Assembly: GCF_014280175.1 (NCBI RefSeq)
Contig: NZ_CP047931.1
Span: 1,230,001-1,262,000 of the forward strand
Direction of reading: 5' to 3'
Length of the DNA: 32,000 bases
Source: Synechococcus sp. A15-28
Lineage (GTDB): Bacteria > Cyanobacteriota > Cyanobacteriia > PCC-6307 > Cyanobiaceae
The stretch's first letter is position 1, and every line of letters starts with the position of its first letter. The notes under the pieces were generated by a model. That model searched no databases. It was not told the DNA's origin and worked only from the letters and a program-made list of their open reading frames with translations. This document shows, in pieces, positions 6,883 to 28,035 of the stretch. Both the position numbers and the translations under genes were made by a program.

Positions 6883-6887
6883 ACCGA

Positions 6888-8134: not shown

Positions 8135-8137
8135 GGC

Positions 8138-8641: not shown

Positions 8642-8713
8642 CCCTGATCAACCGCAGCAACAACACAAGTCTCGCGAACCCTGCACGGGCGACAACAGGG
8701 GATTGGCGGAAAG

Positions 8714-8766
8714 ATCCCTCAACTGAGGGATGGATAGAGACTTCAAGCTCCCTCAATCGAGGGAGC
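8714..8766. promoter_or_regulatory. Two related perfect inverted repeats in a divergent intergenic region
   Basis: ATCCCTCA-AC-TGAGGGAT (8714-8731) and GCTCCCTC-AATC-GAGGGAGC (8747-8766) share the core CCCTCAA..GAGGG, with centres 34 nt apart. They lie between the DUF411 start (8641, - strand) and the DUF429 start (8798 or 8819, + strand). Confidence 0.4.
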
Positions 8767-8818
8767 GAAAGCTCACGGCAGCCTGCAGATTGCTCTCTTG
8801 ACCATCCTCGACACACGA

Positions 8819-9679: not shown

Positions 9680-9857
9680 GGCCAATCACAAACCTTAAGC
9701 ACCAACCAGGTGAACGACAAAACCGCCCAACCAGCCGATACTGACTGGAGAAGACAGGCGTTATGACCAGCTCGGCCCCGACAAGTGGACGTGACTGGAG
9801 CAAGCTTTTGATCTAACCCAAAATCGCTCACTCTCCTTTCTCAAACAACTCCCCGCC

Positions 9858-10088
9858 ATGAGCTCTTCCACCACCATGATCACCTGTACTCCGGGTGTGC
9901 GTAGTGGAAAGCCCTGCCTGGCTGGAACACGAATCAGCGTGTCTGATGTACTCGAATATCTCGCCAGTGGGATGAGCCAGGGCGAGATCCTGGCGGATTT
10001 CCCCGATCTGAAGCCAGAACACATTCAAGCCGTGCTGCGCTTCGCAGCAGAACGTGAAAAACGGCTCAGCGAACTCACCGTGGCGTGA
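9858..10088 (+). CDS. DUF433 antitoxin-like protein
   Basis: PGVRSGKPCLAGTRISVSDVLEYLASGMSQGEILADFPDLKPEHIQAVLRFA matches the DUF433 pattern. Confidence 0.8.
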   Translation: MSSSTTMITCTPGVRSGKPCLAGTRISVSDVLEYLASGMSQGEILADFPDLKPEHIQAVLRFAAEREKRLSELTVA

Positions 10089-10093
10089 GCGGC

Positions 10094-10258
10094 ATGAGCC
10101 TGCTGAGAGGTGCACCGCCGAAAGTGATCTGGCTCGTGGTGGGTAACACCAGCACGACAGAACTTCTCAGAATTTTGCTCGCTCACTCCACGGCGATCGA
10201 GACTTTTATCACCGAACCGGACACCTCCCTGCTCACGATCAGCAAGCCCCGTCCATGA
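10094..10258 (+). pseudogene. Truncated DUF5615 (PIN/Mut7-C-like toxin partner of DUF433), C-terminal half only
   Basis: The 54-codon ORF MSLLRGAPPKVIWLVVGNTSTTELLRILLAHSTAIETFITEPDTSLLTISKPRP corresponds to the C-terminal roughly half of DUF5615 proteins (remembered LLRGAPPKVIWLRLGN). The N-terminal acidic catalytic half is absent. Confidence 0.6.
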
Positions 10259-10283
10259 GCCTCTCCGCCACCACCAACAAACC

Positions 10284-10694
10284 ATGATCAGCGCCCTGCT
10301 CAACATCCTCTGGGTTGTGCTCGGAGGTTTCGTGATGGCCCTGGGCTAGTGGCTGGCCGGGCTGCTGTGCGCGATCACGATCATCGGGCTGCCCTGGGCG
10401 CGCTCCTGCTTTGTGATCGGCAGGTTCTCGCTATGGCCGTTCGGGCAGGAAGCCGTGAACCGCGAGGAATTGAGCGGACGCGGTGATCTGAGCACAGGGC
10501 CGCTGGGGCTGATCGGCAACGTGCTCTTGTTTCTGGTGGCGGGCTGGTGGTTGGCGATCGGCCACCTCAGCTCCGCCCTCGCCTGTTTCGTGAGCATCGT
10601 GGCCATTCCCTTCGGAATTCAGCACATCAAGCTGGCTTTGATCGCGTTGAAACCCGTTGGCATGACAGTGGTGCCGGTGCGGTCGGCGGGCTGA
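10284..10694 (+). pseudogene. yccF: yccF (DUF307 inner membrane protein) interrupted by an in-frame TAG
   Basis: The frame from ATG 10284 reads MISALLNILWVVLGGFVMALG*WLAGLLCAITIIGLPWARSC...SLWPFGQEA.... It is collinear with E. coli YccF, and the TAG at 10347-10349 aligns with the conserved Trp of LGW. The track only shows the distal part (10413..10694). Confidence 0.75.
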
Positions 10695-10700
10695 ATGGCC

Positions 10701-11309
10701 TCAATCCAGCGATGGCGGCGTGAAGGTGTCGGCCACCGCCACGATCCAACGGGCAGCAGCAGCCGCCACCTTTTCCTTGGTGACGTTGAACTCCAGGTCG
10801 TGGCCTGCGGAGAGCAGATCGGGAATGATCGTTTGCCAGGCCATGCCGGCGGCACTGGCTTTGAGATCACCGATCAGCACAAAAGCCTTGGCAGCACCGG
10901 CCACCGCAGCGGTGTACTCGGCATTGGCCGACACCTTGCTGCGATACCAGTCGCTCACCTGATCACGCTGGGCCTTGCTCAGAAACGGCGGTGCCCCCAC
11001 CAAATAGGCATCAAGCACCAGCATCGGGCTGGGCACGCTCTGGCCGGGATGCTTGAGCGCAAACCAGGCCTGGCCGATTGAGGCCGCATCGGGCCAATGG
11101 CAGAGGATCGCGGCGTCCTGACTGTCGAGTGAACGCTGCGCCGCCAGCGCATCAATGCGTTCGAGCAATTCCGGACCAGTGACCGGCGGCTCGGTGCGGG
11201 AGTGTTCAGCCCGGGCTTCATTGATCGCCTCAGCCACCGCCGCTTCGTTCTGCCCCAACTGCTGCAGAGCCCGCTTGAGGTTGGCATCGGCATCGGCGGG
11301 ACTGGTCAA
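10701..11309 (-). CDS. Hypothetical protein (202 aa)
   Basis: Long ORF with good GC3. The first codon is TTG. No family was recognised. Confidence 0.55.
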   Translation of the reverse strand: MTSPADADANLKRALQQLGQNEAAVAEAINEARAEHSRTEPPVTGPELLERIDALAAQRSLDSQDAAILCHWPDAASIGQAWFALKHPGQSVPSPMLVLDAYLVGAPPFLSKAQRDQVSDWYRSKVSANAEYTAAVAGAAKAFVLIGDLKASAAGMAWQTIIPDLLSAGHDLEFNVTKEKVAAAAARWIVAVADTFTPPSLD

Positions 11310-11339
11310 GGGTGATCGCGCAGGGGTGAATCCACGATG

Positions 11340-11744
11340 TCATTGATGATCATCTCGTCGTCGCAGGCGAGCCCCATCCCACGACGCTGTCGACAGGATG
11401 TCTCTCAGCTGATCAAGAACAGCTTGCTTTTGATCATTCCAAGCCCCCTGCTTCACAGTGATCAGATACTCATGTTGAACGCCAGTTCCCCTGATGCGTG
11501 AAGCTGCAATCGCCAGGTCGTCGTAACCAAGTGGGAAAGCAGCATCGGGAGTCAACCCGAGAATGCCCTCAGAAACGAACAGAAGAAAATCAAACAGCAC
11601 CGGGCTGAAGTATTCGTCATCCGGATTCAGGTCACCGCACGACACCATCTGGTCTCTGGTCTGCGGCGTATAGGTCACAAACGAGAAGCACAACGGATGG
11701 CCCGTGTTCTGCAGGTACAAACCTCTGAAACGCTGGCGACTCAT
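11340..11744 (-). CDS. Hypothetical protein (134 aa)
   Basis: The ATG overlaps the stop of the upstream ORF (ATGA at 11741-11744). GC is lower than in the neighbours. No family was recognised. Confidence 0.5.
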   Translation of the reverse strand: MSRQRFRGLYLQNTGHPLCFSFVTYTPQTRDQMVSCGDLNPDDEYFSPVLFDFLLFVSEGILGLTPDAAFPLGYDDLAIAASRIRGTGVQHEYLITVKQGAWNDQKQAVLDQLRDILSTASWDGARLRRRDDHQ

Positions 11745-11986
11745 CGGTGGGATTCCGGATTCATGCCAGGCCTTTGAGCCACATCACTGCGGGCGGGCTG
11801 CTTCATCACGTCAGGGCCAAGGTTGAGATCAGGCTTCAGCCGTAGGGCCATCCACAGAAGCATGGCGGCACACTCATCATCTGTGGAGCCGTAGTCGTAT
11901 TGCCAATCCTTCACCATCGCCACGAGCTCCTGCTGGGCATGGCGGATGAATTCATCAGTCCATTCCTGCATCCTCTTGCCCTCCAC
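11741..11986 (-). CDS. Hypothetical protein (76-81 aa)
   Basis: GTG at 11986 or ATG at 11971. It is translationally coupled to 11340..11744. Confidence 0.45.
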   Translation of the reverse strand: MEGKRMQEWTDEFIRHAQQELVAMVKDWQYDYGSTDDECAAMLLWMALRLKPDLNLGPDVMKQPARSDVAQRPGMNPESHR

Positions 11987-12021
11987 TCAGCGCAAGGCAT
12001 CAGCGCAAAGCAGACGCCATC

Positions 12022-12294
12022 TCAATCTTGATCAAGCTCGTCGTCTTGAACGTAGAAGGGTTCATCGATTCCGGGCTCATTGTTCTGCAGAACAAAATCT
12101 TTCAAACAATCATCGCTTTCAAACACAAACAGATCGTCCTGTTCAGGATGCACACCCTGCATCTCGGGATGGCGATTCACAAGACGCGTGATCTTGCGGC
12201 GCTCCCGCACAAATCCCGATCCCTTTTCAACCAGATAAACCAACAAAGCCAGGTCGACCAACACAAGAGTGACCATTTCCAATATCTGCATCAC
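12022..12294 (-). CDS. Hypothetical protein with an N-terminal TM helix and acidic tail
   Basis: MQILEMVTLVLVDLALLVYLV followed by a charged C-terminus (DDELDQD), in a low-GC segment. The ATG is at 12291. Confidence 0.4.
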   Translation of the reverse strand: MMQILEMVTLVLVDLALLVYLVEKGSGFVRERRKITRLVNRHPEMQGVHPEQDDLFVFESDDCLKDFVLQNNEPGIDEPFYVQDDELDQD

Positions 12295-12384
12295 GCGCGA
12301 ACCATCACTGAAATGACCCTAGCGAGAGAGCCATGAATGGCACTCAGCACAAACGCCTGAAACCAACAACAAACAACTACCGGC

Positions 12385-14028
12385 TCAACGTGAACCCGCG
12401 AACCAGGGCCAGCGCAGACCCGCCGCCTCCAGGGGATTCATCACCAGTTTGTTGAGGGCCCGGCCGAGCACCACCTGCGGTTCATCCGGGCGGATTGGAA
12501 TCACACGGTGTTCGTCGGAGCCCGTTCCGCGCACAACCCCTCGCCGCAGCAGCGAATTGGCCGCCTCCAGGCCGCACACATAGGCCCGCTCCTGACAAAG
12601 GCCCTTGGCGCCATGCTCCCGCTCCCCCATGCGCACCCAGTCGCCGGAGCACACCACCGCCTCAAGCGATGTCTCCAGCGGCGGGCGTTGCTGAAAGCTG
12701 CCGGGAGAAAACAACGACACCGATCCCGGATAACGCCGCACCTCCTGATCCACCACCTGCGCATGGCGGAAGGCCGATTGCACCTGCGGCAGCAACTGCT
12801 GCATCAAGGCATCAACGATCTCCTGATCGCTCTGCTCAGCAATGGCACTGGCGTTGTAGAAGTCGCTGGCGATCACTGACCCCTGCACCGGCTGATCCCC
12901 CCACAGGGCCTGCTCGTTGTCGGCCTGCAGTTGATCCAGCATGAAGAAGGTGGCGCCGGCCCCCTTCAAGGCCGCGAAACGGGAGAAGACATTGGCGGGA
13001 TCGTCAACGGCAATGGAGCGATCCAGCCACAGCCGCACCGACACCACATCGATCGCGCCGAGTCCACCGGCCCGCGCCAGCTCCGGTGCCAAGGCAGCGC
13101 ACTCCGCTGATCTGGCCATCAGAGACCCCATGCCTCGGGCCCCCACCGCCAGCACCACGGCATCCACGTCGTCGATCACACCCGTCTCGCCGGTCGCCAG
13201 CGATCGCGTCTCCAGCGAGTCAGTGGCACCGGTGGGGGAGACGTTCAAGCGTGAAGCAAACGTGCCGCCCAGGACCTGCAGCTGATGCGCATCGCAAAGA
13301 CGGCGGCTCAGGGGGGCAAGCAGTTGCTCACCGATGCTCTTGCACTTGATCCAGCGCACATCAAAGGAATCCTGGTGCGCCAGGGCGTAGTAGTAGAGCA
13401 GCTCCATCGTCACCGCCGCCGACAGCTCCTCCGGTGGCTTGAACAGTCCCACCAGCAGGATCGGCCGCAGGAACTCGTTGATCATCCGCTCGCTGATCCG
13501 CAGTTGCCGGAACAGCGTGAGCGCATCAAGGGCGTCGTAGCACTCATACACCGCAGGGCTGCGGTTCAGATCGAGCATCGCCACCAGCAGTCCGGCGATG
13601 CTGAGTCGATCGGCTACCGGCAGGCGCTTGAAATTGTTGATCGTGGCGAAGGCCTGCCCCAACGGACTGGGCAACTGCGGGCCATCACCAAATACCGGTG
13701 CCGTGGCCTCCAACCCCTGGGGCGACCAGAAGGCACTGCTGGTGAACGGGGTGAACACATCGCTCAGCCCAAGTTCTTCGCAGAGCGCATTGATGTTGGG
13801 GTAATCCCGCCAGAACCCGCGGGTGCCGGCTTCAAACGGCTTACCGCTGGCGGTGGTCAGCGGCGTGCTGCCGGTGGGATCCGCCAGGCCATCCACAAGG
13901 GTGACGCGCACCCCGGCTTCACAGAGCGCTTTGGCCGCACCCCATCCCCCCCAGCCGGCACCAACCACCACCACATGCGAAGGGTTGGCCGCCGATTGCT
14001 GCTGCACCGCCATCCCTGACCCCGCCAC
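12385..14028 (-). CDS. FAD-dependent oxidoreductase (amine oxidase / phytoene desaturase-like fold)
   Basis: N-terminal dinucleotide-binding motif VVVVGAGWGGWGAAKAL and a length of 547 aa. The track start is GTG at 14028; an ATG is at 14013. Confidence 0.82.
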   Translation of the reverse strand: MAGSGMAVQQQSAANPSHVVVVGAGWGGWGAAKALCEAGVRVTLVDGLADPTGSTPLTTASGKPFEAGTRGFWRDYPNINALCEELGLSDVFTPFTSSAFWSPQGLEATAPVFGDGPQLPSPLGQAFATINNFKRLPVADRLSIAGLLVAMLDLNRSPAVYECYDALDALTLFRQLRISERMINEFLRPILLVGLFKPPEELSAAVTMELLYYYALAHQDSFDVRWIKCKSIGEQLLAPLSRRLCDAHQLQVLGGTFASRLNVSPTGATDSLETRSLATGETGVIDDVDAVVLAVGARGMGSLMARSAECAALAPELARAGGLGAIDVVSVRLWLDRSIAVDDPANVFSRFAALKGAGATFFMLDQLQADNEQALWGDQPVQGSVIASDFYNASAIAEQSDQEIVDALMQQLLPQVQSAFRHAQVVDQEVRRYPGSVSLFSPGSFQQRPPLETSLEAVVCSGDWVRMGEREHGAKGLCQERAYVCGLEAANSLLRRGVVRGTGSDEHRVIPIRPDEPQVVLGRALNKLVMNPLEAAGLRWPWFAGSR

Positions 14029-14084
14029 CGCTGAAGGCCGACAAGCTAGGCAGGGTTCACCCTGGCCCCGAAGCCGCTGCCCTG

Positions 14085-15839
14085 ATGTTGCGTGCCCTGC
14101 TGCTGATCCTCGGCCTCTGCATCAGCAGCACCAGCGCAGCCGCCGCACCGGTGAGCCGCGACGACCCGGAATCCGCCGATCCCGGCCAAGCCGCCATCTC
14201 CACCGCCGCAGGTGATGCGGTGGTCGTTACCGCCAATCCCCGCGCCAGCCGGGCCGTTGTGGCAGTACTCAAGGCCGGCGGTTCGGCAGTGGATGCCCTG
14301 GTGAGCGCCCAGGCGGTGCTGGCCGTGGTGGAACCGCAGAGTTCCGGCCTGGCCGGTGGTGGTTTTCTGATGCACTGGGATGCCCGGCAGCAACAGCTGC
14401 AGGTGCTCGATGGCCGTGAGGTCGCCCCCCTGAGCAGCCGTCCGGACGATCTGCTGCAGCCCTCCGGCGAACCGCTGCCCTGGCGCGAGGCCACCAGCCG
14501 CCCGGAGGCCATCGGTGTGCCTGGCACCGTGGCTCTGCTCTGGGACGTCCATCAACAGCACGGTCGCCTGCCCTGGGCCACCACGTTGCAGCCGGCCATC
14601 CGTCTTGCCCGTGATGGGTTCCGCCCCAGCCCCCGCCTGCGCCGTTCCATCGGCATCGCCCAACGCATCGGCGTGGACCACAGCCCGGCCTTTCAGGCGC
14701 TGTATCTGCCCGGCGGCCAACCGCCTCCGGCCAACCGGCCCTTCCGCAATCCGGCCCTGGCCCGCACCCTGGAGCTGCTGGCCAAGGACGGCGGCCCGTC
14801 CTTCTACAAAGGCGAACTGGCCCAGCAGATCCTTGCCGGGATGGCTGCCCTGCAGACCGACCAGCCCGACTTCCGCGGCTGGAACCCTGCCGATCTGGCT
14901 GGCTACGCCGTGGTTCAGCGCTCACCGCTCTGCCACCGGCTGCGCAGCTACCGGCTCTGCACGGTGCCGCCACCGAGCAGCGGCGGGCTGGCGGTGTTGC
15001 AGACCCTGGCACTGCTGAACCAGAGCAACGCATTGAGCGACCCTGCCGATCCGCAGACCTGGCGGCTGCTGGCGCGAGCCCAGGCCTGGGCTGATGCCGA
15101 TCGCCTCTACTGGGTGCACGACCCCATGGATGGGGCCATTCCGACAGGCCCCTTGCTGGATCCCGTCTACATCCAGTCCCGCGCCATTGCCCTGCAGACC
15201 TCCCCCGCGGCTCGCCCGACTCCGGGGCTGCCCCCTGGCCTGGCGGCCTACCCCTATGCGCTGCCGGAGCAAAGCCGCGAACAGGGCACCACCCATCTGG
15301 CGATCGTCGATGGCCAGGGAAACCTCGCTGCTTACACCAGCTCGGTGGAAACGGTCTTCGGCAGCCGCCATCTCGTGGCGGGAATGGTGCTGAACAACCA
15401 GCTCACCGACTTTGCCTTCCGCCCCAGCATCAACGGCCAGCCGGTGGCCAACCGCCGCCGGCCCGGTCGTCGGCCGGTGTCGTCGATGGCTCCGATGATC
15501 GTGTTCGAGCGGGGACAACCGCTGCTGTCGGTCGGCAGTCCCGGCGGACGCAGCATCCCCCACGTGCTCAGCCGCGTGCTGCTGGCCTCCCTGATCTGGC
15601 GTGAGCCACCGACACGGGCCGTCGGGCTGCCGCATCTGTCGCGGCGCCGCAATGGATTGGTGCTGGAACAGGATCCGCCCCTCCCCTGGCCCGTTGCCCT
15701 CGACCAACTCACTCCCGGTGATCAACCGATCCGTCGCCAACGCCTAGGCAGCGGCACCGCCCTGCTGCAGAAGATCAACGGCCGCTGGCACGGAGCAGCC
15801 GACCCCCGCCGGGAGGGCACTGCCCTGTCAGCTGACTGA
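14085..15839 (+). CDS. ggt: Gamma-glutamyltranspeptidase
   Basis: Signal peptide, the autoprocessing/catalytic Thr context QGTTHLAIVD, and GSPGGRSI with other family blocks. Confidence 0.92.
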   Translation: MLRALLLILGLCISSTSAAAAPVSRDDPESADPGQAAISTAAGDAVVVTANPRASRAVVAVLKAGGSAVDALVSAQAVLAVVEPQSSGLAGGGFLMHWDARQQQLQVLDGREVAPLSSRPDDLLQPSGEPLPWREATSRPEAIGVPGTVALLWDVHQQHGRLPWATTLQPAIRLARDGFRPSPRLRRSIGIAQRIGVDHSPAFQALYLPGGQPPPANRPFRNPALARTLELLAKDGGPSFYKGELAQQILAGMAALQTDQPDFRGWNPADLAGYAVVQRSPLCHRLRSYRLCTVPPPSSGGLAVLQTLALLNQSNALSDPADPQTWRLLARAQAWADADRLYWVHDPMDGAIPTGPLLDPVYIQSRAIALQTSPAARPTPGLPPGLAAYPYALPEQSREQGTTHLAIVDGQGNLAAYTSSVETVFGSRHLVAGMVLNNQLTDFAFRPSINGQPVANRRRPGRRPVSSMAPMIVFERGQPLLSVGSPGGRSIPHVLSRVLLASLIWREPPTRAVGLPHLSRRRNGLVLEQDPPLPWPVALDQLTPGDQPIRRQRLGSGTALLQKINGRWHGAADPRREGTALSAD

Positions 15840-15878
15840 CGAATCCCAGCAGGATGGTGTTCCAAATGTGCGCTGCTG

Positions 15879-16076
15879 ATGAAGAGCTTCGAGGACACGG
15901 ACCCACGGCCCTACGACCGCCACCGCTATCGGGTGCAGTTCCGCGATGGCTCGTTCAAGGACACCGGCAGCTACGCCGAAGCCACCGATCTCTGGTACTC
16001 AAGTCGGATCAAGCCACGGGTGATTGAGGTGCTGCCCGCCACCAAACCATCCCGCCCGCGTGGCGGCTATGGCTGA
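15879..16076 (+). CDS. Small hypothetical protein (65 aa)
   Basis: ATG start and a plausible sequence (RYRVQFRDGSFKDTGSYAEATDLWY). No family was recognised. Confidence 0.5.
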   Translation: MKSFEDTDPRPYDRHRYRVQFRDGSFKDTGSYAEATDLWYSSRIKPRVIEVLPATKPSRPRGGYG

Positions 16077-16080
16077 GGCT

Positions 16081-16245
16081 TCAGTCAAGCGAAAACTCTC
16101 CGCGAAGAGCTCGCGCATCCTGAATGCGCTGCTCCTTTGCCAAAAGACGCAGCCGCGTGTTGAGCCAGAAGCGCAACCGATCGGACGACACCGACTTGTT
16201 CAGCAGCGCATCCGAAGGTTCAGGTTCACCGAAGGGAATCGTCAC
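16081..16245 (-). CDS. Possible small ORF (54 aa) coupled to the DUF427 gene
   Basis: The GTG start overlaps the DUF427 stop (GTGA at 16242-16245). The translation is VTIPFGEPEPSDALLNKSVSSDRLRFWLNTRLRLLAKEQRIQDARALRGEFSLD. A competing + strand ORF (16069..16272) has similar GC3, so this stays unresolved. Confidence 0.3.
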   Translation of the reverse strand: MTIPFGEPEPSDALLNKSVSSDRLRFWLNTRLRLLAKEQRIQDARALRGEFSLD

Positions 16246-16526
16246 TTCAGCTCCACCCCTTTGCCCCGGTAGAAGGCGAAGCGTTCACGGATTGATTCGG
16301 CGTCTGGCTTGGGGGTGTCGTAGGCCCAAACGGCGTTGCGGATCACCTGATCGCCAACCACCACATCCCAGTAGCGAGCCGTGCCTTTCCATCCACAGAC
16401 CGTGGTGTGATCGGACGCGCGGAAGAACTCCTCTGCCATAGCAGCGCGGGGGAAATAGGGGTTGCCATCCACCATCACGATGTCATCGCTGTCAGCCAGG
16501 ACCGTGCCGTTGAAGATCGCCTGCAT
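16242..16526 (-). CDS. DUF427 protein
   Basis: CGWKGTARYWDV and the overall 94-aa pattern match remembered DUF427. Confidence 0.8.
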   Translation of the reverse strand: MQAIFNGTVLADSDDIVMVDGNPYFPRAAMAEEFFRASDHTTVCGWKGTARYWDVVVGDQVIRNAVWAYDTPKPDAESIRERFAFYRGKGVELK

Positions 16527-16576
16527 GATCTGGCACCGTTCGTCGCTGGGCGCAGGCTAGAAAATCTGTCCCGGAA

Positions 16577-16792
16577 TCAGTTGTATTCACCAGGCGTCTC
16601 CTGCTTGGACACCGTCACCCGCCCCACCTTGTTGCCGGAGAACCGCAGCAATTCATCCCCGCTGAAGGAATAGCCCAGCCCGCCGGCAATCTTGGCGACA
16701 TCATCGGCTGTGGATGCCGCCAGCACTGACTGCTTCAGGGCCTCGTCGTCCTGCAGACGCAGCAGGAAGCCTTTCAGTTGATCGAGAGCCAT
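16577..16792 (-). CDS. Nif11-domain small protein (71 aa)
   Basis: Starting at the internal ATG 16792, MALDQLKGFLLRLQDDEALKQSVLAASTADDVAKIAGGLGYSFSGDELL is the Nif11 N-terminal domain pattern. A short tail follows (RFSGNKVGRVTVSKQETPGEYN). Confidence 0.7.
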   Translation of the reverse strand: MALDQLKGFLLRLQDDEALKQSVLAASTADDVAKIAGGLGYSFSGDELLRFSGNKVGRVTVSKQETPGEYN

Positions 16793-16832
16793 CGCCCGCC
16801 TCAGCGAAGGGCCGTGAACCGTAAACGACGAC

Positions 16833-17009
16833 TCAGGATGCGATCGACAGATCCGAACCGTCATCGATCTGCAAGTGAGTCGTCAGACAAGTGGTGACAC
16901 AGGTCTGGTCATGGATGTCGCAGGCGCTGATGCAGACGAAATACTCATCGTGGGCCTGCCACCGTTCGCCAATGGATTGGTGTTGATGTTCCTGCTTGAG
17001 TGAGTACAT
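16833..17009 (-). CDS. Small Cys-rich ORF (58 aa)
   Basis: Sub-threshold ORF MYSLKQEHQHQSIGERWQAHDEYFVCISACDIHDQTCVTTCLTTHLQIDDGSDLSIAS with 4 Cys. It lies directly upstream of the Nif11-like gene and is preceded by an AT-rich region (17010-17130). Confidence 0.4.
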   Translation of the reverse strand: MYSLKQEHQHQSIGERWQAHDEYFVCISACDIHDQTCVTTCLTTHLQIDDGSDLSIAS

Positions 17010-17187
17010 CTGAATTCTTGCGAGTGCGACACCTTTACGAGCAGCCTTGATGGCTAGTCAATAAAAACATTGCGGAGAATAAAATACTTAGGGAAATAAT
17101 CTCAGGAAGAAATACTTATCCGGATCGTGAACAAGCCTTGCCGCCGGTTGTCATCTGGGCGACAAACCACAAGAGTGAAACCAGCGC

Positions 17188-17361
17188 ATGGACGAGGTCA
17201 TGGAATTCAAAAGCCGCATCTTTGCCAACTCACAAGGTCAAACAATCGACGCCGTTGGCAACGGCCGCTACCTGGTCTGCCATCAGACCAGCTGCGTCAT
17301 GGTGAAAGGCTGGCGCCAGGCCCAGACTGCCTTGAAACGCCAGGAGTCACCGATGGCATGA
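17188..17361 (+). CDS. Possible small ORF (57 aa)
   Basis: MDEVMEFKSRIFANSQGQTIDAVGNGRYLVCHQTSCVMVKGWRQAQTALKRQESPMA. GC3 is high, and it looks more protein-like than the listed 17127..17510 ORF in another frame. Confidence 0.35.
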   Translation: MDEVMEFKSRIFANSQGQTIDAVGNGRYLVCHQTSCVMVKGWRQAQTALKRQESPMA

Positions 17362-17392
17362 AGCAGGGCGAGCCACCTCCGGACGTCTGGCC

Positions 17393-17593
17393 TCAGAGGG
17401 TCTGCCAGGTGCTGGTGAGCCACTGGGGGGCAACGCTCCACCAGACTGCGACAGCCACAAAAATGGCCATCAAGCCAATGAGGCTGGTGATCAGCGTTTC
17501 TTCGCGCTGAGCATCGGACGTGACTTTTCTGACTTTTCCCAAGGATCGATCGGTCTCTGCTGATGGTGTAGGTCGGCAGAAATCGATCGTCAT
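17393..17593 (-). CDS. Small C-terminally anchored membrane protein (66 aa)
   Basis: ATG at 17593, a charged N-terminal half, then the TM helix LITSLIGLMAIFVAVAVWWSVA. Confidence 0.4.
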   Translation of the reverse strand: MTIDFCRPTPSAETDRSLGKVRKVTSDAQREETLITSLIGLMAIFVAVAVWWSVAPQWLTSTWQTL

Positions 17594-17943
17594 CGGTGAA
17601 AACACCGACCGTTCAATAGACGCCGAAGACGTCAGAGGAAGTCGAAGTTGTCCTCATCATCCTCATCTTCATTGGACTGGATCCACAAAGCCGCCACAGG
17701 GAAGATCAAACATCTCGCAAGAAGAATTTCCATCAACCAGAAAAGCTTTGAACACTAAAAACCCAATTAACTGCTTCAAGGATGTCGGTCACAACCAACC
17801 CCTTAATCACTCAACATGGTTGCGGATGATTCAAACCCTTCCGATTAAGCAGATTCACTTAAACGGCCTGCAACGAATCATCCGATACGTTTTTATGATC
17901 GATCAAAACAGATGATTGAAATATTCATTCAACGCTTCAACCG

Positions 17944-18021
17944 ATGGAACTGATTGCACTGGCCATCATCGTTGGCATCAGCGGAGGCCTTGCCGCCCGC
18001 TTGACCCCACGCAAATGCTGA
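17944..18021 (+). CDS. Tiny hydrophobic ORF (25 aa)
   Basis: MELIALAIIVGISGGLAARLTPRKC is a single TM-like helix with a basic tail, at the edge of an AT-rich islet. Confidence 0.25.
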   Translation: MELIALAIIVGISGGLAARLTPRKC

Positions 18022-18024
18022 ACC

Positions 18025-18099
18025 ATGTACACCCTCACCGCTGCCCTTGTGACCGCTGGGTTTATCGGCTTGTTCAGTCCAATCATTGCCCTGTTCTGA
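18025..18099 (+). CDS. Tiny hydrophobic ORF (24 aa)
   Basis: MYTLTAALVTAGFIGLFSPIIALF starts 3 nt after the stop of the preceding tiny ORF. Confidence 0.25.
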   Translation: MYTLTAALVTAGFIGLFSPIIALF

Positions 18100-18124
18100 G
18101 TCATCCACATCCAGCAGAAGAGGC

Positions 18125-18544
18125 TTAGAACCGTCCTTGCACAAGACGAAAGTCCCAATCCGTGAATGGAGCTCGCAGCTTCACCAACTCCTGATACGCG
18201 GGGCTTTTGTAAAAATCGATGCCGTCCTGGAGGGTCTTGCCCTTGCAGGCAGTCACCACCGTCAAGGGACCTCCATCACCTTCCATCAGCAAGGTGTTGC
18301 GCTGGCGAACGAGATACTCACAGCCCCACTCCTCCATCAGGGCATCCACCTTTTCGATGTAGCCCTTCATGGCTGGTTCGGCCTTGGTGGTTCCAGTCAC
18401 AACTGCCATGCCGTAATTCTGCTGAGGCTTCGGGATCAGCACCCCGGCAATCAGCCCAATCGATCCGGCTGCGATGCCGACAACGGCCGTGAGGTTGAAA
18501 CGCATCGGATCAATCAGCAGTGTTCCGTCATCATCGCTGGCCAA
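18125..18544 (-). CDS. Membrane-anchored DUF1330-like protein
   Basis: The C-terminal part (YIEKVDALMEEWGCEYLVRQ...MEGDGG...YKSPAYQELVKLR) fits the remembered DUF1330 pattern. An N-terminal TM helix is AVVGIAAGSIGLIAGVLI. The track start is TTG at 18544, directly after the DoxX stop; an ATG is at 18505. Confidence 0.6.
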   Translation of the reverse strand: MASDDDGTLLIDPMRFNLTAVVGIAAGSIGLIAGVLIPKPQQNYGMAVVTGTTKAEPAMKGYIEKVDALMEEWGCEYLVRQRNTLLMEGDGGPLTVVTACKGKTLQDGIDFYKSPAYQELVKLRAPFTDWDFRLVQGRF

Positions 18545-18934
18545 TCACCGGTGCCGTAGCCAACGAAAGCTGGGCACTGCTCCTGCACTGGACCGAGTGA
18601 GCGCCAACAACAATGCACCAATCAGGGCCACGTTCATGAAGAAGCCGCTATCCACCGGAAACGTGTGAAAAAGCAGCGTGGTGGGCACGAGAAACACCAG
18701 CAGCAGCGACGCCCCGAGCCGGGTGTTCGTTCCAAAAACAAAAACAACCGATCCGAAGATCAAACAGGTGATGGCACTGGCCAGGAGACATCCAGCCAAG
18801 GGTTCGGCGATCCCTTTTGAAGCGATCACATCAACCGTTCCGCTGAAATCCGTCACTTTTCCGGGAACGGCTTTGACAAACAACGCAGCCATTAAAACTC
18901 GCCCGAGCCAATCGAGCAGGAGCTGAGAGGTCAT
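18545..18934 (-). CDS. DoxX-family membrane protein
   Basis: Four hydrophobic helices, about 129 aa and a DoxX-like pattern (GRVLMAALFV..GK). The ATG overlaps the upstream stop (ATGA at 18931-18934). Confidence 0.75.
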   Translation of the reverse strand: MTSQLLLDWLGRVLMAALFVKAVPGKVTDFSGTVDVIASKGIAEPLAGCLLASAITCLIFGSVVFVFGTNTRLGASLLLVFLVPTTLLFHTFPVDSGFFMNVALIGALLLALTRSSAGAVPSFRWLRHR

Positions 18935-19128
18935 GTCCAGTTTTTCCAGATAAAACGCTCATCCCAATCTCCCCTGACGGCCCGGATGAATGCATCCTCC
19001 GACTCATCGGTCATGAAGCAATACGCAATCACCTTGTTGTCGTCGTCTTTGATCGCCAGAACATCATCCGACGGCGGTGACGTGGCTGACGAGAAAATTT
19101 TGCCGTCTCTCAGGATGAAGCGATGCAT
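18931..19128 (-). CDS. Small hypothetical protein (65 aa), first gene of the DoxX operon
   Basis: ATG start, an acidic sequence, and translational coupling to the DoxX gene. Confidence 0.45.
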   Translation of the reverse strand: MHRFILRDGKIFSSATSPPSDDVLAIKDDDNKVIAYCFMTDESEDAFIRAVRGDWDERFIWKNWT

Positions 19129-19277
19129 CGTCTTCAGACGGGGATTTCTTCAACCTAGCCACGCAAATCCAACGTAAATGTGACGACTCAAACCAAAGCA
19201 TTCGTCATGGCGCCCTGTCAGAGCTGGACAACGTGATACTGGGGGACTAAGACAGAAATGTCGTCACCACGACGCAG

Positions 19278-19344
19278 CGTTCACTTCGCTTTCTGCGGAG
19301 CGCAGCTCGACTCAGGCCATGGAACGGGGGTCTGGGCTTGCTTC
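19278..19344 (+). promoter_or_regulatory. Structured leader RNA, copy 1 (glutamine-riboswitch-like, glnA RNA / Downstream-peptide family)
   Basis: CGUUC (19278-19282) pairs with GAACG in GGAACGGGG (19321-19329). The internal hairpin is CUUCGC/UUUCU/GCGGAG. The 44-nt 3' block is 40/44 identical to copy 2. It sits upstream of a short ORF. Confidence 0.6.
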
Positions 19345-19355
19345 CCTTGGATGCG

Positions 19356-19532
19356 ATGACAACAATGGTTTGGAACGGATCAGCTTTTGGCCCTCAGGAT
19401 CGTGAGGCCGCCAAACGTGAGGCGCTGGTACGGCGTCTTGAGTCAGCCTTAGCAGGTCCTGATGGGCAGCACTCGGCCCAGTACTGCGGCACGGCATACC
19501 TGCGCCGAAACGGCTTTTCGGCTCTGCGCTGA
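19356..19532 (+). CDS. Small ORF (58 aa) downstream of leader copy 1
   Basis: MTTMVWNGSAFGPQDREAAKREALVRRLESALAGPDGQHSAQYCGTAYLRRNGFSALR. The ATG is 27 nt after the conserved leader. It ends 14 nt before the selO start. Confidence 0.4.
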   Translation: MTTMVWNGSAFGPQDREAAKREALVRRLESALAGPDGQHSAQYCGTAYLRRNGFSALR

Positions 19533-19546
19533 CCGATCAGGCCGCA

Positions 19547-21268
19547 GTGATGCTTTCAATAGCATCAGCGGATCGCTGGTTCGACCCCATGCCCACCGTC
19601 GCGCACAGTTTTGAGGACTTCAGCCAGCGGATCGACTACTCACTGCTGAAAGCGCTGAAGCCTGATCCTGAAGCCACAGCGGACGGCAATGACCACCGCC
19701 CCAGGCCGGTGTTCTCAGGCCACTGGGTGCCGGTGAAGCCCACACCCATTCCGGATCCGAAATACGTCGCCCACAGCTTCCGTTTGTTCGCGGAACTTGG
19801 TCTCAGCGATGACCTCGCCCACAACGCCGACTTCACCCGGCTCTTCTCCGGTGATGCATCGGTGGCAACCGACCCGATGCACCCGTGGGGGTGGGCCACC
19901 GGCTATGCCCTGTCGATCTACGGCACGGAATACATCCAGCAGTGCCCCTTCGGCACCGGCAACGGCTACGGCGACGGCCGGGCGATGTCGATCGTTGAGG
20001 GGGTTTTTGAGGGCCAGCGCTGGGAGATGCAACTGAAGGGCGGCGGCCCGACCCCCTACTGCCGTGGGGCCGATGGCCGGGCCGTACTCCGCTCCAGCGT
20101 GCGCGAATTTCTGGCCCAGGAGTTCATGCATGCCCTCGGCGTTCCCACCTCCCGTTCACTGGCGCTGTATCGCTCCGAAGCCGAAACGGTGCGACGCCCC
20201 TGGTACTCGGACCAGTCACGCTCCTTTGATCCCGACGTGATGGTCGACAACCAGGCCGCCATCAGCACTCGGGTGGCGCCGTCGTTTCTGCGGGTGGGGC
20301 AGATCGAGCTGTTCGCACGCCGCGCACGCGACAACGCCCATCCCGATGCCCAGGAGGAACTGCGGCTGATAGTGCAGCACCTGATCGACCGCAACTACCG
20401 CACCGAGATTGACGCCGCCCTGCCCTTCCATCAGCAGGTGCTGGAGCTGGCGCGTCTGTTCCGCAGTCGACTCACGGCCCTGGTCGCCAACTGGATGCGC
20501 GTCGGCTACTGCCAGGGCAACTTCAACAGCGACAACTGCGCAGCCGGCGGTTACACCCTCGACTACGGCCCCTTCGGCTTCTGCGAATTGTTCGACCCCC
20601 GCTTCCAACCCTGGACCGGTGGTGGGGCCCACTTCTCCTTCTTCAATCAGCCGACAGCAGCGGAGGCCAACTACCGGATGTTCTGGCGATCCCTGCGCAC
20701 TCTGCTGGAGGGGGATGACGCAGCCCAGCGCGAGCTCGATCTACTCAACGAAGGGTTTGCAGTGGCCATGCAGCAGCAACTGGAGGCGATGTGGGCCAGC
20801 AAGCTGGCACTCCCCGCCTACGACGAAGCCCTGGTGACCGAGCTGTTGCAGCTGTTGGTGGCCGCCAAGGCCGACTACATCAAGGCCTTCCGCCTGCTCT
20901 CGGCCATTCCCGAGCGGGTCGCCGAGTTGCACGCGAGTTTCTACCTGCCCTGTTCCGAAGACCTGGATCAACGCTGGCAGACCTGGCTGCAACGCTGGCG
21001 CGAGCGGATCACCGCCAACGGCAACCTGGAGGAGACGTCTGCGGCCATGCGGCGCGTCAACCCCGCCATCACCTGGCGGGAATGGCTGATCGCCCCCGCC
21101 TATCAACAGGCGGAGCTGGGCGACAACAGCCTGGTGCTGGAACTGCAGACCCTGTTCAGCAACCCCTACAGCGACCCCTCCCCTGAACTGGCGGCCCGCT
21201 ACGACCAACTCAGGCCGCAGCAGTTCTTCAGCGCCGGCGGCATCTCTCACTACAGCTGTTCGTCCTGA
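19547..21268 (+). CDS. selO: Protein adenylyltransferase SelO (YdiU/UPF0061)
   Basis: Collinear with remembered E. coli SelO: GDGRA, LKGGGPTPY..GDGRAVLRSSVREFL..E.MH.LG+PT+R, RVAPS.LR.G, N.DN, LDYGPFGF and the C-terminal SCSS. The start is GTG 19547 or ATG 19550. Confidence 0.92.
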   Translation: MMLSIASADRWFDPMPTVAHSFEDFSQRIDYSLLKALKPDPEATADGNDHRPRPVFSGHWVPVKPTPIPDPKYVAHSFRLFAELGLSDDLAHNADFTRLFSGDASVATDPMHPWGWATGYALSIYGTEYIQQCPFGTGNGYGDGRAMSIVEGVFEGQRWEMQLKGGGPTPYCRGADGRAVLRSSVREFLAQEFMHALGVPTSRSLALYRSEAETVRRPWYSDQSRSFDPDVMVDNQAAISTRVAPSFLRVGQIELFARRARDNAHPDAQEELRLIVQHLIDRNYRTEIDAALPFHQQVLELARLFRSRLTALVANWMRVGYCQGNFNSDNCAAGGYTLDYGPFGFCELFDPRFQPWTGGGAHFSFFNQPTAAEANYRMFWRSLRTLLEGDDAAQRELDLLNEGFAVAMQQQLEAMWASKLALPAYDEALVTELLQLLVAAKADYIKAFRLLSAIPERVAELHASFYLPCSEDLDQRWQTWLQRWRERITANGNLEETSAAMRRVNPAITWREWLIAPAYQQAELGDNSLVLELQTLFSNPYSDPSPELAARYDQLRPQQFFSAGGISHYSCSS

Positions 21269-21309
21269 ACGTGACAGCTTGGGGGCGCCCCACACCACGG
21301 CAACGGCTG

Positions 21310-21762
21310 ATGACCGCCAGCTCGATCCAGCCCCAGCAGACGCACCGGAGCAACCCGGTGCAAGGCGTCTGGAGCCTTATCTCCTACGTGGTGGAGGTGC
21401 AGGGAACCGGTGAAACCTTTGCGCCGATGGGAGAGCAGCCCACGGGTTATGTGATCTTCACGGCCGAAGGTCGGTTGTCCTTCACCCTGTCAGCCCAGGG
21501 GCGCCAGCCCGCGACCACCGCTGAAGAACAATCCCATCTGCTCAACAGCATGATTGCCTACACCGGCAGCTACCGGTTGGAGGGGGATCGCTGGATCACC
21601 CAGGTTGATGTGGCCTGGAATCCCTCCTGGGTCGGCACGGAGCAGACCCGTTTTTACCGGGTGGAGAACGATCAGTTGATCGTCAGCACCCCATGGCGGG
21701 TGATGCCCAACTGGCCGGAGAAGGGAATGACCCGCAGCATCGTGCGCTTTCAGCGCTGTTGA
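21310..21762 (+). CDS. Lipocalin-like domain protein
   Basis: GVWSLISYVV...PTGYVIFTAEGRLSF...IAYTGSYRLEGDRWITQVDVAWNPSWVGTEQTRFYRVENDQLIV fits the remembered lipocalin-like (PF13924-type) pattern. The ATG at 21310 is preferred over GTG at 21271. Confidence 0.6.
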   Translation: MTASSIQPQQTHRSNPVQGVWSLISYVVEVQGTGETFAPMGEQPTGYVIFTAEGRLSFTLSAQGRQPATTAEEQSHLLNSMIAYTGSYRLEGDRWITQVDVAWNPSWVGTEQTRFYRVENDQLIVSTPWRVMPNWPEKGMTRSIVRFQRC

Positions 21763-25424: not shown

Positions 25425-25837
25425 CTTCCGTAAGCATCAAGCGACACAGAATTCGGCCAGAAGTGTTCGTCTGATCATCATCTTCAGAGAATCTTTGAGT
25501 CCACAGCCCCGAGCGATGGCCGTCGAAACCTCCATTTCGTCGCCATTGCAGCAGTCCAGGGGGTGCACGGAGGAGGAAATTGTTGAAAACACGCCCTCAC
25601 AACCATGCCGTTAACACCATTAACAGCCATATCGAACGATAAAAAAACAAAACCTGCTCTTCTCCCACGCCCTCTTCGTCCGGATGCAGATCGTCCGACA
25701 GGACAACGCATCGAGACCAGCTGGATGGAACTCCGCCAGGACTATTCAGGGCTTGGTTGAGGCCATTTCCACGCCAAAATCGTGTTGTGTAGCGGCACGA
25801 ACGACACAGCCGAAGACAGAGCCTGTAGAACTGTGAT

Positions 25838-25851
25838 GTAGCAACTGCTAC
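25838..25851. promoter_or_regulatory. Perfect GTA-N8-TAC palindrome (NtcA-type site)
   Basis: GTAGCAACTGCTAC, extended as TGTAGCA-AC-TGCTACA, ends 7 nt before leader copy 2. Confidence 0.45.
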
Positions 25852-25858
25852 AGCATCA

Positions 25859-25925
25859 CGTTCACCTCACCTCCGGTGAGGCGCAGTTCGACTCAGGCCA
25901 TGGAACGGGGACCTGAGCTTGCTTC
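25859..25925 (+). promoter_or_regulatory. Structured leader RNA, copy 2 (glutamine-riboswitch-like)
   Basis: CGUUC (25859-25863) pairs with GAACG in GGAACGGGG (25902-25910). The hairpin is CCUCACC/UCC/GGUGAGG. CUCAGG pairs with CCUGAG around the conserved CCAUGGAACGGGG. It lies directly upstream of a DUF4278-type peptide gene. Confidence 0.65.
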
Positions 25926-25937
25926 GAGGAACCCATC

Positions 25938-26042
25938 ATGACCCTGACCTATCGCGGCCAGAAGTACGTGCAGAACAACGCTGCTGCCCAAAACAGCAAG
26001 CGTTCTGTTTTGGTGTATCGCGGTCACAAAGTGGCTCAGTAA
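25938..26042 (+). CDS. DUF4278-type short peptide (34 aa)
   Basis: MTLTYRGQKYVQNNAAAQNSKRSVLVYRGHKVAQ has two YRGxK(Y/V) repeats, as remembered for DUF4278. It is absent from the ORF track (<60 aa) and is followed by an intrinsic terminator. Confidence 0.7.
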   Translation: MTLTYRGQKYVQNNAAAQNSKRSVLVYRGHKVAQ

Positions 26043-26068
26043 GCCCCATCGTTGATGTGGCTGACTTT

Positions 26069-26093
26069 CCCCGCCTTGGCGGGGCTTTTTTTT
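26069..26093 (+). terminator. Rho-independent terminator
   Basis: CCCCGCC-TT-GGCGGGG stem followed by C and T8, 27 nt after the DUF4278 stop. Confidence 0.7.
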
Positions 26094-26097
26094 GCCC

Positions 26098-26346
26098 TCA
26101 GCCAACGGTTAATTCACCATCAACGCCGTACTGATGTAGACACTGCTTCACCGTGAGCACCGACAGGGTGCTGCCTGTGTCGGCATCGAACAACACGTAG
26201 GGACAGCCCCGAACAACACAGCGACGGCGCGCATCCACGTAGGCATTAAACAGGGTCTGGTGGGAACATTCCTCCACCCAGCCGCTGCTGCTCAAATAGC
26301 GCGTCAGGATCATGCGCCCCTCACAGATGCTTCCGTGATGGCCCAT
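26098..26346 (-). CDS. Hypothetical Cys-containing protein (71-82 aa)
   Basis: ATG at 26346 or 26313. No family was recognised. Confidence 0.4.
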   Translation of the reverse strand: MGHHGSICEGRMILTRYLSSSGWVEECSHQTLFNAYVDARRRCVVRGCPYVLFDADTGSTLSVLTVKQCLHQYGVDGELTVG

Positions 26347-26662: not shown

Positions 26663-26731
26663 TGGCGACATTTCGTAGCTGATCACACCACATGAGTTGC
26701 CGCTGCAACGGACAGTGGGCTTGCGGAGAAA

Positions 26732-26820
26732 CCTAGGGTTCCGGTTCCGTCAGGGATGACTGGTCCGAGAGGTTTCGGTCGGTTCTGCCGACTGCACGGA
26801 GGGACAAAAGCCCGGGAGAC
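26732..26820 (+). promoter_or_regulatory. Guanidine-I (ykkC) riboswitch aptamer
   Basis: CTAGGGTTCCGG (26733-26744), GGTCCGAGAG (26762-26771) and ACGGAGGGACAAAAGCCCGGGAGA (26796-26819) occur in the order of the remembered ykkC consensus, 25 nt upstream of the hydrolase ATG. Confidence 0.85.
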
Positions 26821-26844
26821 CGCATCCACCCCATCTCCCCTCCG

Positions 26845-28035
26845 ATGTCCTCCCCCTCAGACCCCACTGGGGCCTTCCAGCGATCGCACCCCAGCGAGGG
26901 TTTCGCTGCGCTCGAAAAAGAACGGAAACTCCCGCTCACCGGCTGGCAACAGGAAGTTGATCAGGCCAAGCGTTTTGGCCTCGAAGCAGCCGAGAGCATC
27001 GTGGACCGCAACATCTCCACGTTTTCGCGAGGCGAATTGCCTCACTTTGCAGGAATCAACACTTTCATGAAGGCTCCCTACCTGGAGGATGTCACCCAGG
27101 TGGGGAACTACGACGTCGCCATCATCGGAGTACCCCACGATTGTGGGACGACGTACCGACCAGGCACCCGATTCGGCCCCCAGGGCATCCGCAGGATTTC
27201 TGCGCTGTACACCCCGTACAACTACGAGATGGGAGTGGACCTGCGTGAACAGATCACCCTGTGCGATGTCGGAGACATCTTCACGATTCCAGCCAACAAC
27301 GAGAAGAGTTTCGATCAGATCTCCAAGGGCATCGCCCACGTCTTCGCCAGCGGCGCCTTCCCGATCATTCTCGGCGGCGACCACTCCATCGGCTTCCCCA
27401 CTGTTCGTGGTGTTTGCCGCCATCTCGGTGACAAGAAAGTGGGCATCATCCACTTCGATCGACATGTCGACACCCAGGAGATCGACCTGGATGAACGCAT
27501 GCACACCTGTCCGTGGTTCCACGCCACCAACATGGCGAATGCCCCAGCTGAAAACCTGGTGCAGCTCGGCATCGGTGGTTGGCAAGTTCCCAGGGAAGGG
27601 GTGAAGGTTTGCCGTGAACGCGGCACCAACGTTCTCACAGTCACCGACATCACCGAGATGGGCCTGGAGGCGGCTGCTCAGTACGCCATAGAACGGGCCA
27701 CGGATGGTACTGACTGCGTCTACATCTCCTTTGATATCGACTGCATCGATGCCGGCTTTGTGCCGGGTACCGGTTGGCCCGAACCGGGCGGCCTGCTGCC
27801 GCGAGAAGCCCTCAAGCTGCTCGAGTTGATTGTCCGCAATATCCCGGTCTGTGGGCTCGAGATCGTTGAGGTGTCGCCTCCGTATGACATTAGTGACATG
27901 ACCTCATTGATGGCCACCCGCGTGATCTGCGATGCCATGGCTCACCTCGTGGTCAGCGGCCAGCTGCCCCGAAAGGGCACGCCGGCCTGGATCAGCGATG
28001 TCTGCAACATGAACGTCGATCAGAAGTGGAGGTAA
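26845..28035 (+). CDS. gdmH: Arginase-fold ureohydrolase, GdmH-like guanidine hydrolase (automated labels would say agmatinase/SpeB)
   Basis: Metal-ligand motifs GGDHSI, FDRHVD and SFDIDCIDAGFVPGTG. The length is about 396 aa with an N-terminal extension, as in Sll1077. It follows a guanidine riboswitch and precedes HypA/HypB-like genes. Confidence 0.8.
   Translation: MSSPSDPTGAFQRSHPSEGFAALEKERKLPLTGWQQEVDQAKRFGLEAAESIVDRNISTFSRGELPHFAGINTFMKAPYLEDVTQVGNYDVAIIGVPHDCGTTYRPGTRFGPQGIRRISALYTPYNYEMGVDLREQITLCDVGDIFTIPANNEKSFDQISKGIAHVFASGAFPIILGGDHSIGFPTVRGVCRHLGDKKVGIIHFDRHVDTQEIDLDERMHTCPWFHATNMANAPAENLVQLGIGGWQVPREGVKVCRERGTNVLTVTDITEMGLEAAAQYAIERATDGTDCVYISFDIDCIDAGFVPGTGWPEPGGLLPREALKLLELIVRNIPVCGLEIVEVSPPYDISDMTSLMATRVICDAMAHLVVSGQLPRKGTPAWISDVCNMNVDQKWR

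Follow-up and report, generated by a model that had tools for sequence, protein, structure and literature searches.

A glutamine-II riboswitch cassette beside selO in Synechococcus sp. A15-28: probable neighbors through lineage-specific insertion

A 32,000-nucleotide (nt) stretch of the Synechococcus sp. A15-28 genome (contig NZ_CP047931.1, positions 1,230,001 to 1,262,000; hereafter the window, in whose coordinates positions are given) was analyzed for the relationship between a glutamine-II riboswitch, the small open reading frame (ORF) directly behind it, and selO, the gene for the protein adenylyltransferase (AMPylase) SelO/YdiU. Two riboswitch copies occur in the window. The initial annotation had proposed that SelO expression is tied to glutamine through copy 1, which lies just upstream of selO. 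Based upon comparative sequence analysis, we estimate a probability of about 75% that the copy-1 cassette and selO are neighbors by way of a lineage-specific insertion, and that they do not represent a conserved regulatory unit whose adjacency is under selection.

The selO neighborhood across picocyanobacteria

A pattern scan with one genome per species yielded 44 other loci with SelO relatives (68-88% identity; loci from this and subsequent searches are numbered with the prefix L), and approximately 4 kilobases (kb) upstream of each selO were examined using Rfam, a core-motif regular expression and tblastn. Neither the aptamer nor the small ORF was found within ~4 kb upstream of selO in 43 of the 44 picocyanobacterial genomes. 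Both were present in a single genome, AG-670-A05 (L001), with an aptamer score of 42.2 bits. A survey for this leader before selO in other picocyanobacteria had been suggested in the initial annotation, with absence of the synteny named as evidence against a glutamine link, and absence was the outcome in all genomes except this one.

The DNA flanking selO is consistent with an insertion. The ~650 nt that immediately precede selO in nine marine Synechococcus genomes matched positions 17167-17345 and 17395-17547 of the window, and the DNA preceding this block matched the window at 4.9-6.4 kb. Since these other genomes are contiguous at this point, the interval from 17.55 to 19.53 kb is interpreted as lineage-specific DNA inserted beside selO; it contains DUF1330 and DoxX genes, a 65-amino-acid (aa) ORF and the copy-1 cassette.

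Two intervals of the window, ~6400-17170 and ~17550-19532, were missing at the syntenic position in other marine Synechococcus genomes and resemble genomic-island insertions beside selO. The blocks at 17167-17345 and 17395-17547 have 72-86% identity across genomes and adjoin selO in at least nine marine Synechococcus; in the window they are 2 kb away. ORFs in several frames of these blocks give similar translations across genomes. The blocks had no Rfam match at E <= 1, and no Pfam match was found for a 70-aa minus-strand ORF at 17393-17605. They may represent a small gene that has escaped annotation, or a non-coding RNA.

Within the clade that carries the small ORF, ~10 distinct loci share the order of small ORF, 56-nt spacer and selO. 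At L051, L057, L058 and L059, a 641-aa gene is inserted precisely after the stop codon of the small ORF and before the selO block TCAATAGCATCA...ATG (242-2167 in L051, from ~2737 in L057, and between 1284 and 3339 in L058). This insertion is found in two diverged lineages (L051/L057 and L058/L059) represented by independent assemblies, and its product has a weak C-terminal match to DUF4114 (25.2 bits, under the cut-off of 27). The recurring junction suggests a candidate recombination hot spot at the hairpin of the spacer, which is described below.

Decay of the cassette was also observed beside a retained selO. The 5' half of the aptamer has been deleted twice independently, in L047 and in L048 together with L050. 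The small ORF has become a pseudogene through a frameshift and a 27-nt deletion in L048, and through two in-frame TAG codons in L061. In L048, L050 and L061 selO is intact and full length, and the L047 contig covers only the first ~28 selO codons. Furthermore, no selO was found within the 0.05-3 kb of available DNA downstream of six distant loci of the small-ORF family (L062-L067), with just 53 nt beyond the small-ORF stop on L063 and 133 nt on L064; in L062 the gene following the small-ORF homologue is convergent. The missing synteny in 43 of 44 genomes, the intervening 641-aa gene and the decay of aptamer or small ORF with selO kept all speak against the proposal that SelO expression is tied to glutamine.

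The copy-1 cassette and its small protein

Rfam identified copy 1 as a glutamine-II (downstream-peptide) riboswitch aptamer (RF01704) at 19275-19336 on the plus strand, with 60.4 bits over the full model (1-60; gathering score 33; E = 2e-12). Helices P1 and P2 were recovered by RNAalifold across 11 cassettes, with 18 pairs including 5 compensatory ones (both sides changed, pair kept). The pseudoknot strands, as read from the Rfam alignment, are complementary: the 5' strand CGTTCAC at 19278-19284 (CGUUC) faces GGAACG in the P2 loop, where the strand reads GGAACGGGG (19321-19329). Both are nearly invariant among cassettes, with single substitutions in L053 and L001. The small ORF is located directly 3' of the aptamer, which ends at 19336, and has candidate start codons at 19356 and 19365. 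An Rfam E-value scan of 17000-19700 returned only the aptamer, plus a small nucleolar RNA match far under its threshold.

The glutamine-II class binds L-glutamine and acts as an ON switch, as demonstrated for a member from Prochlorococcus MED4 (PMC6212724) and structurally (PMC6698751). It is thought to regulate translation initiation, and the ligand-stabilized pseudoknot has been proposed to free the ribosome binding site (PMC6212724, PMC6698751). Marine picocyanobacteria carry many copies of the aptamer (WH 8102 has nine), mostly 5' of DUF4278 genes and sometimes 5' of ORFs without Pfam matches (Klahn et al. 2018, PMC6212724). The full-model score and the P1/P2 covariation bear out the earlier description of the leader as glutamine-riboswitch-like, and we infer that copy 1 is a genuine glutamine-II riboswitch, expected to be a translational ON switch for the adjoining ORF. 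RNAalifold of the 11 cassettes found no conserved structure in the expression platform that occludes the ribosome binding site. The Shine-Dalgarno region of copy 1 is TGGAT, compared to AGGAG in the distant members. In four of these (L062, L064, L065 and L067), the linker sequence CAGCUC is complementary over 6 nt to the Shine-Dalgarno region (G)GAGCUG, a possible occluding pairing that is put forward as an idea only and that is absent from the window copy (19337-19355).

A -10-like hexamer, TAAGAC (19248-19253, plus strand), marks the putative cassette promoter, and CTAAGA is retained in most relatives. It sits 6 nt 5' of the palindrome GTCGTCACCACGAC (GTC-N8-GAC; 19260-19273, plus strand), which is NtcA-box-like and equivalent in position to the NtcA boxes of sister cassettes. 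Four nt separate the palindrome from CGTTCAC, as in L065, L066 and L067, which like copy 2 have perfect GTA-N8-TAC boxes at the equivalent position. No perfect GTA-N8-TAC was found at the copy-1 promoter. The GTC-N8-GAC sequence keeps only the outer GT...AC, which is conserved in the close relatives retaining this stretch.

Copy 2 represents a complete canonical cassette on the plus strand (25826-26093). It comprises a -10-like TAGAAC (25826-25831) 6 nt 5' of an NtcA box, GTAGCAACTGCTAC (25838-25851), the sole perfect GTA-N8-TAC in the 32 kb; a glutamine-II aptamer (25856-25917; RF01704, 72.2 bits, full model); a 34-aa DUF4278 ORF (25938-26042; Pfam 31.3 bits, cut-off 25.3); and an intrinsic terminator, CCCCGCC-TT-GGCGGGG followed by T8 (26069-26093). 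The two copies match in the spacing of -10, 6 nt and palindrome, after which copy 1 continues with 4 nt and CGTTCAC. A sigma-70 consensus promoter scan detected nothing in 18900-21600 or 25700-26300, and is regarded as uninformative for this organism because the cassette promoter sites within these ranges were also missed. A riboswitch of another class was observed nearby, a guanidine-I riboswitch (RF00442, 86.6 bits) at 26722-26820 (plus strand), directly 5' of an arginase-family ORF (26845-28035, plus strand; 396 aa; PF00491, E = 1.3e-78). The order across 26722-28035 fits the guanidine hydrolase (GdmH)/riboswitch arrangement recently reported from cyanobacteria (PMC12704784).

The small ORF occupies 19356-19532 on the plus strand, with 58 codons plus a stop codon, or 55 codons from an alternative ATG at 19365. 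It is entered in RefSeq for A15-28 as a 58-aa hypothetical protein (WP_186586139.1). Ratios of non-synonymous to synonymous substitution rates (dN/dS) were 0.1-0.25 in divergent pairs, and 0.7-0.8 in two closely related pairs with very few substitutions; the C-terminal 39 codons gave 0.05-0.2 among close relatives. The 58-codon ORF of the initial annotation is thus present with homologues, and judged by these ratios it is a real gene under purifying selection.

Homologue searches of the word-indexed type returned 7 clusters, and an exhaustive search with a hidden Markov model (HMM) over 1.84 billion representatives found only 13 relatives. Several of these 13 are over-called ORFs whose N-terminal extensions resemble translated aptamer (e.g. 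...RGAQLD.GHGTGAW...). Five of the more distant members, located on six contigs (L062-L067), were looked up, and a glutamine-II aptamer of 58-69 bits lies directly upstream at all six loci. These members begin MT[ST]L[FY]WNG, in agreement with the first ATG, and several close relatives retain only the second. The family consensus is MT[ST]L[FY]WNGSAF..(8)..K[RK]EA.V.RLE.A...PD...S..YRG..YLR[RQ]NGF. An AlphaFold2 model of the small protein contained one confident helix only (predicted local distance difference test score 62, predicted template modeling score 0.32).

No Pfam family was found at E <= 10 for the small protein or four homologues, including DUF4278 (PF14105). When the family was aligned to two DUF4278 peptides by hhalign, only the 13 columns around YRGxxY were aligned, at a probability of 8-10%, which is insufficient for homology to DUF4278 to be claimed. 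In DUF4278 the YRGxxY motif is usually repeated, starting from near the N-terminus, whereas in the small-ORF family it is single and C-terminal. The elements WNGSAF and RNGFSA, previously read as DUF4278-like, are conserved motifs of the family and not YRG-like; the actual motif is YCGTAY at residues 43-48 (19482-19499, plus strand), as identified from the family alignment and hhalign. Relatives read YRGTAY or HRG, FRG or YRGS variants at these residues, most of them conforming to YRGxxY. Codon 44 (19485-19487) is TGC (Cys) in the window and CGC or CGA (Arg) in all other aligned members except the metagenome contig L055, whose small ORF and compared flanks are identical to the window. The change from Arg44 to Cys may impair the small protein in this strain.

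These 55-58-aa proteins, consistently found behind glutamine-II aptamers and outside DUF4278, are a small and apparently undescribed family. It looks like part of the set of aptamer-preceded ORFs without Pfam matches in PMC6212724, and it is conceivable, although improbable, that the small protein represents another class of regulator induced by glutamine, separate from the IF17-like peptides. On the Tara metagenome contig L062, two glutamine-II cassettes were observed ~600 nt apart (840-1080 and 1523-1780). The first precedes a DUF4278-like ORF of 54 aa (24.5 bits, cut-off 25.3) and the second precedes the small-ORF homologue; therefore, both product families coexist in one genome as separate cassettes.

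The spacer and transcription into selO

The selO gene (19589-21268, plus strand) encodes a 559-aa protein with a Pfam match to PF02696 (E = 1.6e-63). Its closest relatives in the PDB are E. coli YdiU 6k20 and 6iii (E ~3e-47; 6k20_A, E = 2.6e-47), to which the segments LKGxGxTPY, GRAVLRS, NxDN and DYGPFGF are aligned. Specifically, GNFNSDN and DYGPFGF align with HGVMNTDN and DYGPFGF of 6k20_A, and the lysine/arginine nucleotide-binding segment is aligned as well. Its sequence is the same as that of QNI42526.1/WP_186586140.1 from Synechococcus sp. A15-28. This strain belongs to clade III of the marine Synechococcus, and both the small ORF and selO are already publicly annotated in it.

The earlier placement of SelO on the same strand as the small ORF was correct, as was its identity, but the distance of 14 nt and the length of 573 aa were not retained. 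An N-terminally extended SelO, beginning at GTG 19547 or ATG 19550, was ruled out. NCBI calls a 559-aa SelO 56 nt past the small-ORF stop in WH 8103, A18-46.1 and A15-28, and most picocyanobacterial SelO proteins begin at the equivalent of ATG 19589. The upstream DNA of WH 8017 (L002) is alignable and has an in-frame TAG within the supposed extension, and L058 has no start codon in this stretch. Across the 13 extension codons, 1-4 non-synonymous and 0-2 synonymous changes were counted per comparison. On account of the gene calls, the TAG, the missing start codon and the non-synonymous changes, the start of selO is assigned to ATG 19589, leaving a non-coding spacer of 56 nt (19533-19588, plus strand).

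The 3' ~33 nt of this spacer, TCAATAGCATCAGCGGATCGCTGGTTCGACCCC, remain with selO where the 641-aa gene has been inserted (L051 and L058) and can be aligned in part to WH 8017, a genome without the small ORF. A hairpin or palindrome within the spacer, TGATGCT-TTCAAT-AGCATCA (19548-19567, plus strand), is conserved, folds at -18.8 kcal/mol with flanking CCGC/GCGG pairs (z = -1.8) and has no U tract 3' of it. It is identical at every locus with the small ORF and selO except L047 and offers no covariation. The 7-bp hairpin that had been described as the only structure between the two genes (GCCGAAA-CGGCT-TTTCGGC, 19504-19522, plus strand) gave way to this better conserved one. Minimum-free-energy folding of the surrounding sequence does not give the 7-bp element (z = -1.2 compared to shuffles), the left arm carries mutations in L001, L052 and L054, with a pair lost in L001, and the element falls within the most conserved codons of the small ORF (RRNGFSA).

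No terminator-like site was found between 19337 and 19589. Since the canonical terminator of copy 2 has no counterpart in copy 1, read-through into selO remains as plausible as originally stated, and three co-directional, tightly packed genes (lipocalin-like, DUF924 and DUF3104) follow 3' of selO. The stop codon of the small ORF and the start codon of selO neither overlap nor nearly abut, being separated by the non-coding spacer with its hairpin, which argues against translational coupling.

Results are consistent with 19248-19532 being a self-contained cassette, in which the promoter, whose NtcA-box-like palindrome would cover the likely start of transcription, is followed by the aptamer and the gene for the 55-58-aa protein. 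By analogy with tested members of the class, glutamine binding would stabilize the pseudoknot and switch ON translation of the small protein. The cassette lies at the end nearest selO of DNA that other marine Synechococcus genomes lack, with selO as the next core gene. Across all contexts examined in this lineage selO retains its own upstream block of ~33 nt, with partial similarity in WH 8017. Some transcription probably continues from copy 1 into selO and the three co-directional genes. The glutamine sensing of the aptamer is presumably not relayed to SelO synthesis because the switch is translational and the 56-nt spacer is non-coding. With read-through, selO mRNA in this lineage could nevertheless follow the cassette promoter, possibly under NtcA control, which would be transcriptional hitch-hiking and not glutamine gating by the aptamer.

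Several observations weigh against an adjacency without regulatory meaning. The small ORF and selO share a strand, and the 56 nt between them contain neither a terminator nor a recognizable promoter, the promoter scan being insensitive here. The island insertion has replaced the ancestral upstream DNA of selO beyond about -35 to -40; therefore, selO may depend on cassette transcription in this lineage. Direct small-ORF-selO order is commonest in the sampled clade III strains (WH 8103, A15-28 and A18-46.1) and also occurs in the lineage of L001, L052 and L054. The small ORF is present in clade III strains RS9915 and A18-40 as well.

Of the other explanations, the one that fares best, although still tentative, is that selO is transcribed independently from a minimal promoter of its own in the spacer, with TAGCAT (19560-19565) as a candidate -10-like element and the spacer hairpin marking where the small-ORF transcript ends. 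The block TCAATAGCATCAGCGGATCGC...ATG is kept 5' of selO beside either the small ORF or the 641-aa gene, and the insertion junctions coincide with its 5' edge. A partial match to the block, CATAGCATCGG, is found in WH 8017, where the upstream neighbor is a divergent gene. The conserved hairpin at 19548-19567 also agrees with such a transcript end, but it lacks a U tract, and its left arm is missing in L051, L058 and L002, indicating that selO does not need it. Furthermore, TAGCAT is weak as a -10 and has no -35, and the consensus promoter scan was empty.

It is unlikely that the copy-1 cassette has been decaying in this strain and has lost its function as a regulated gene. Such decay would agree with the Arg44 to Cys change confined to the window and the matching contig L055, the GTC/GAC form of the NtcA box instead of GTA/TAC, the Shine-Dalgarno TGGAT compared to AGGAG of distant members, and the aptamer deletions and small-ORF pseudogenes of sister strains. 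However, the aptamer has kept its conserved core and a score of 60 bits, the small ORF is open, and dN/dS is 0.1-0.25 clade-wide.

A recent capture within clade III is less probable again. Loss of the cassette terminator would have put selO and the lipocalin-like, DUF924 and DUF3104 genes under the NtcA- and nitrogen-controlled cassette promoter. If true, the SelO transcript would track nitrogen status in the clade III lineage only, representing capture of an AMPylase by the nitrogen regulon.

Least credible is a single glutamine-responsive operon of leader, small ORF and selO, in which SelO would be made according to nitrogen status and might act on nitrogen-assimilation targets: the common strand, the short spacer, the absence of a canonical terminator such as that of copy 2, the displacement of the ancestral selO upstream DNA and the NtcA-box-like palindrome at the cassette promoter would fit it, but it is opposed by the synteny missing in 43 of 44 other selO genomes, the 641-aa gene interrupting the order in L051, L057, L058 and L059, intact selO beside deleted aptamers or small-ORF pseudogenes, distant small-ORF homologues without selO in their available downstream DNA, a non-coding 56-nt spacer with a hairpin, a riboswitch that acts as translational ON switch of the adjoining ORF (PMC6212724, PMC6698751), and literature searches in which none of the papers listed dealt with SelO/YdiU in cyanobacteria or linked it to nitrogen control there.

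With insertion as the preferred explanation, the attractive link between glutamine sensing and protein AMPylation is removed as unsupported. SelO is not known to be controlled by a riboswitch, and the present analysis supports no such control. The small-ORF family extends the candidate glutamine-induced regulators of picocyanobacteria, whose putative peptide targets are glutamine synthetase or others. Furthermore, the natural variants with aptamer deletions, small-ORF pseudogenes or the 641-aa insertion represent ready controls for read-through and riboswitch function.

Comparison with known systems

The SelO of the window is a full-length orthologue of SelO/YdiU (PF02696; PDB 6k20, 6iii and 6eac) with conserved ATP-binding and catalytic segments. 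The initial annotation had drawn an analogy to the control of glutamine synthetase by GlnE in enterobacteria, where AMPylation is tied to nitrogen status. The GlnE fold is unrelated to SelO, nothing in the present analysis connects SelO to glutamine synthetase, and cyanobacteria lack the GlnE adenylylation system (PMC6212724).

The DUF4278/IF17-like cassettes of marine picocyanobacteria (PMC6212724), exemplified by copy 2, share with copy 1 the aptamer family, its placement immediately before a short ORF, an NtcA-type box that closely precedes the aptamer and a YRGxxY-type motif in the product, and the glutamine-dependent translational ON switch is expected for copy 1 too. Copy 1 differs in its variant GTC-N8-GAC box, in the absence of a terminator after the ORF, and in its product, which has no Pfam DUF4278 match and consists of 55-58 aa with an N-terminal WNGSAF, a predicted helix and one C-terminal YRGxxYLRRNGF.

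The glutamine synthetase inactivating factors of Synechocystis sp. PCC 6803, encoded by gifB (IF17), which is preceded by the glutamine-I riboswitch, and gifA (IF7), provide a further comparison. The aptamer of gifB belongs to a different class than that of copy 1, and apart from the YRG motif the small-ORF protein shows no detectable homology to IF7 or IF17. gifB likewise encodes a small protein that is switched ON by glutamine via an aptamer in the 5' untranslated region and is repressed by NtcA, making it a plausible model for the small-ORF protein.

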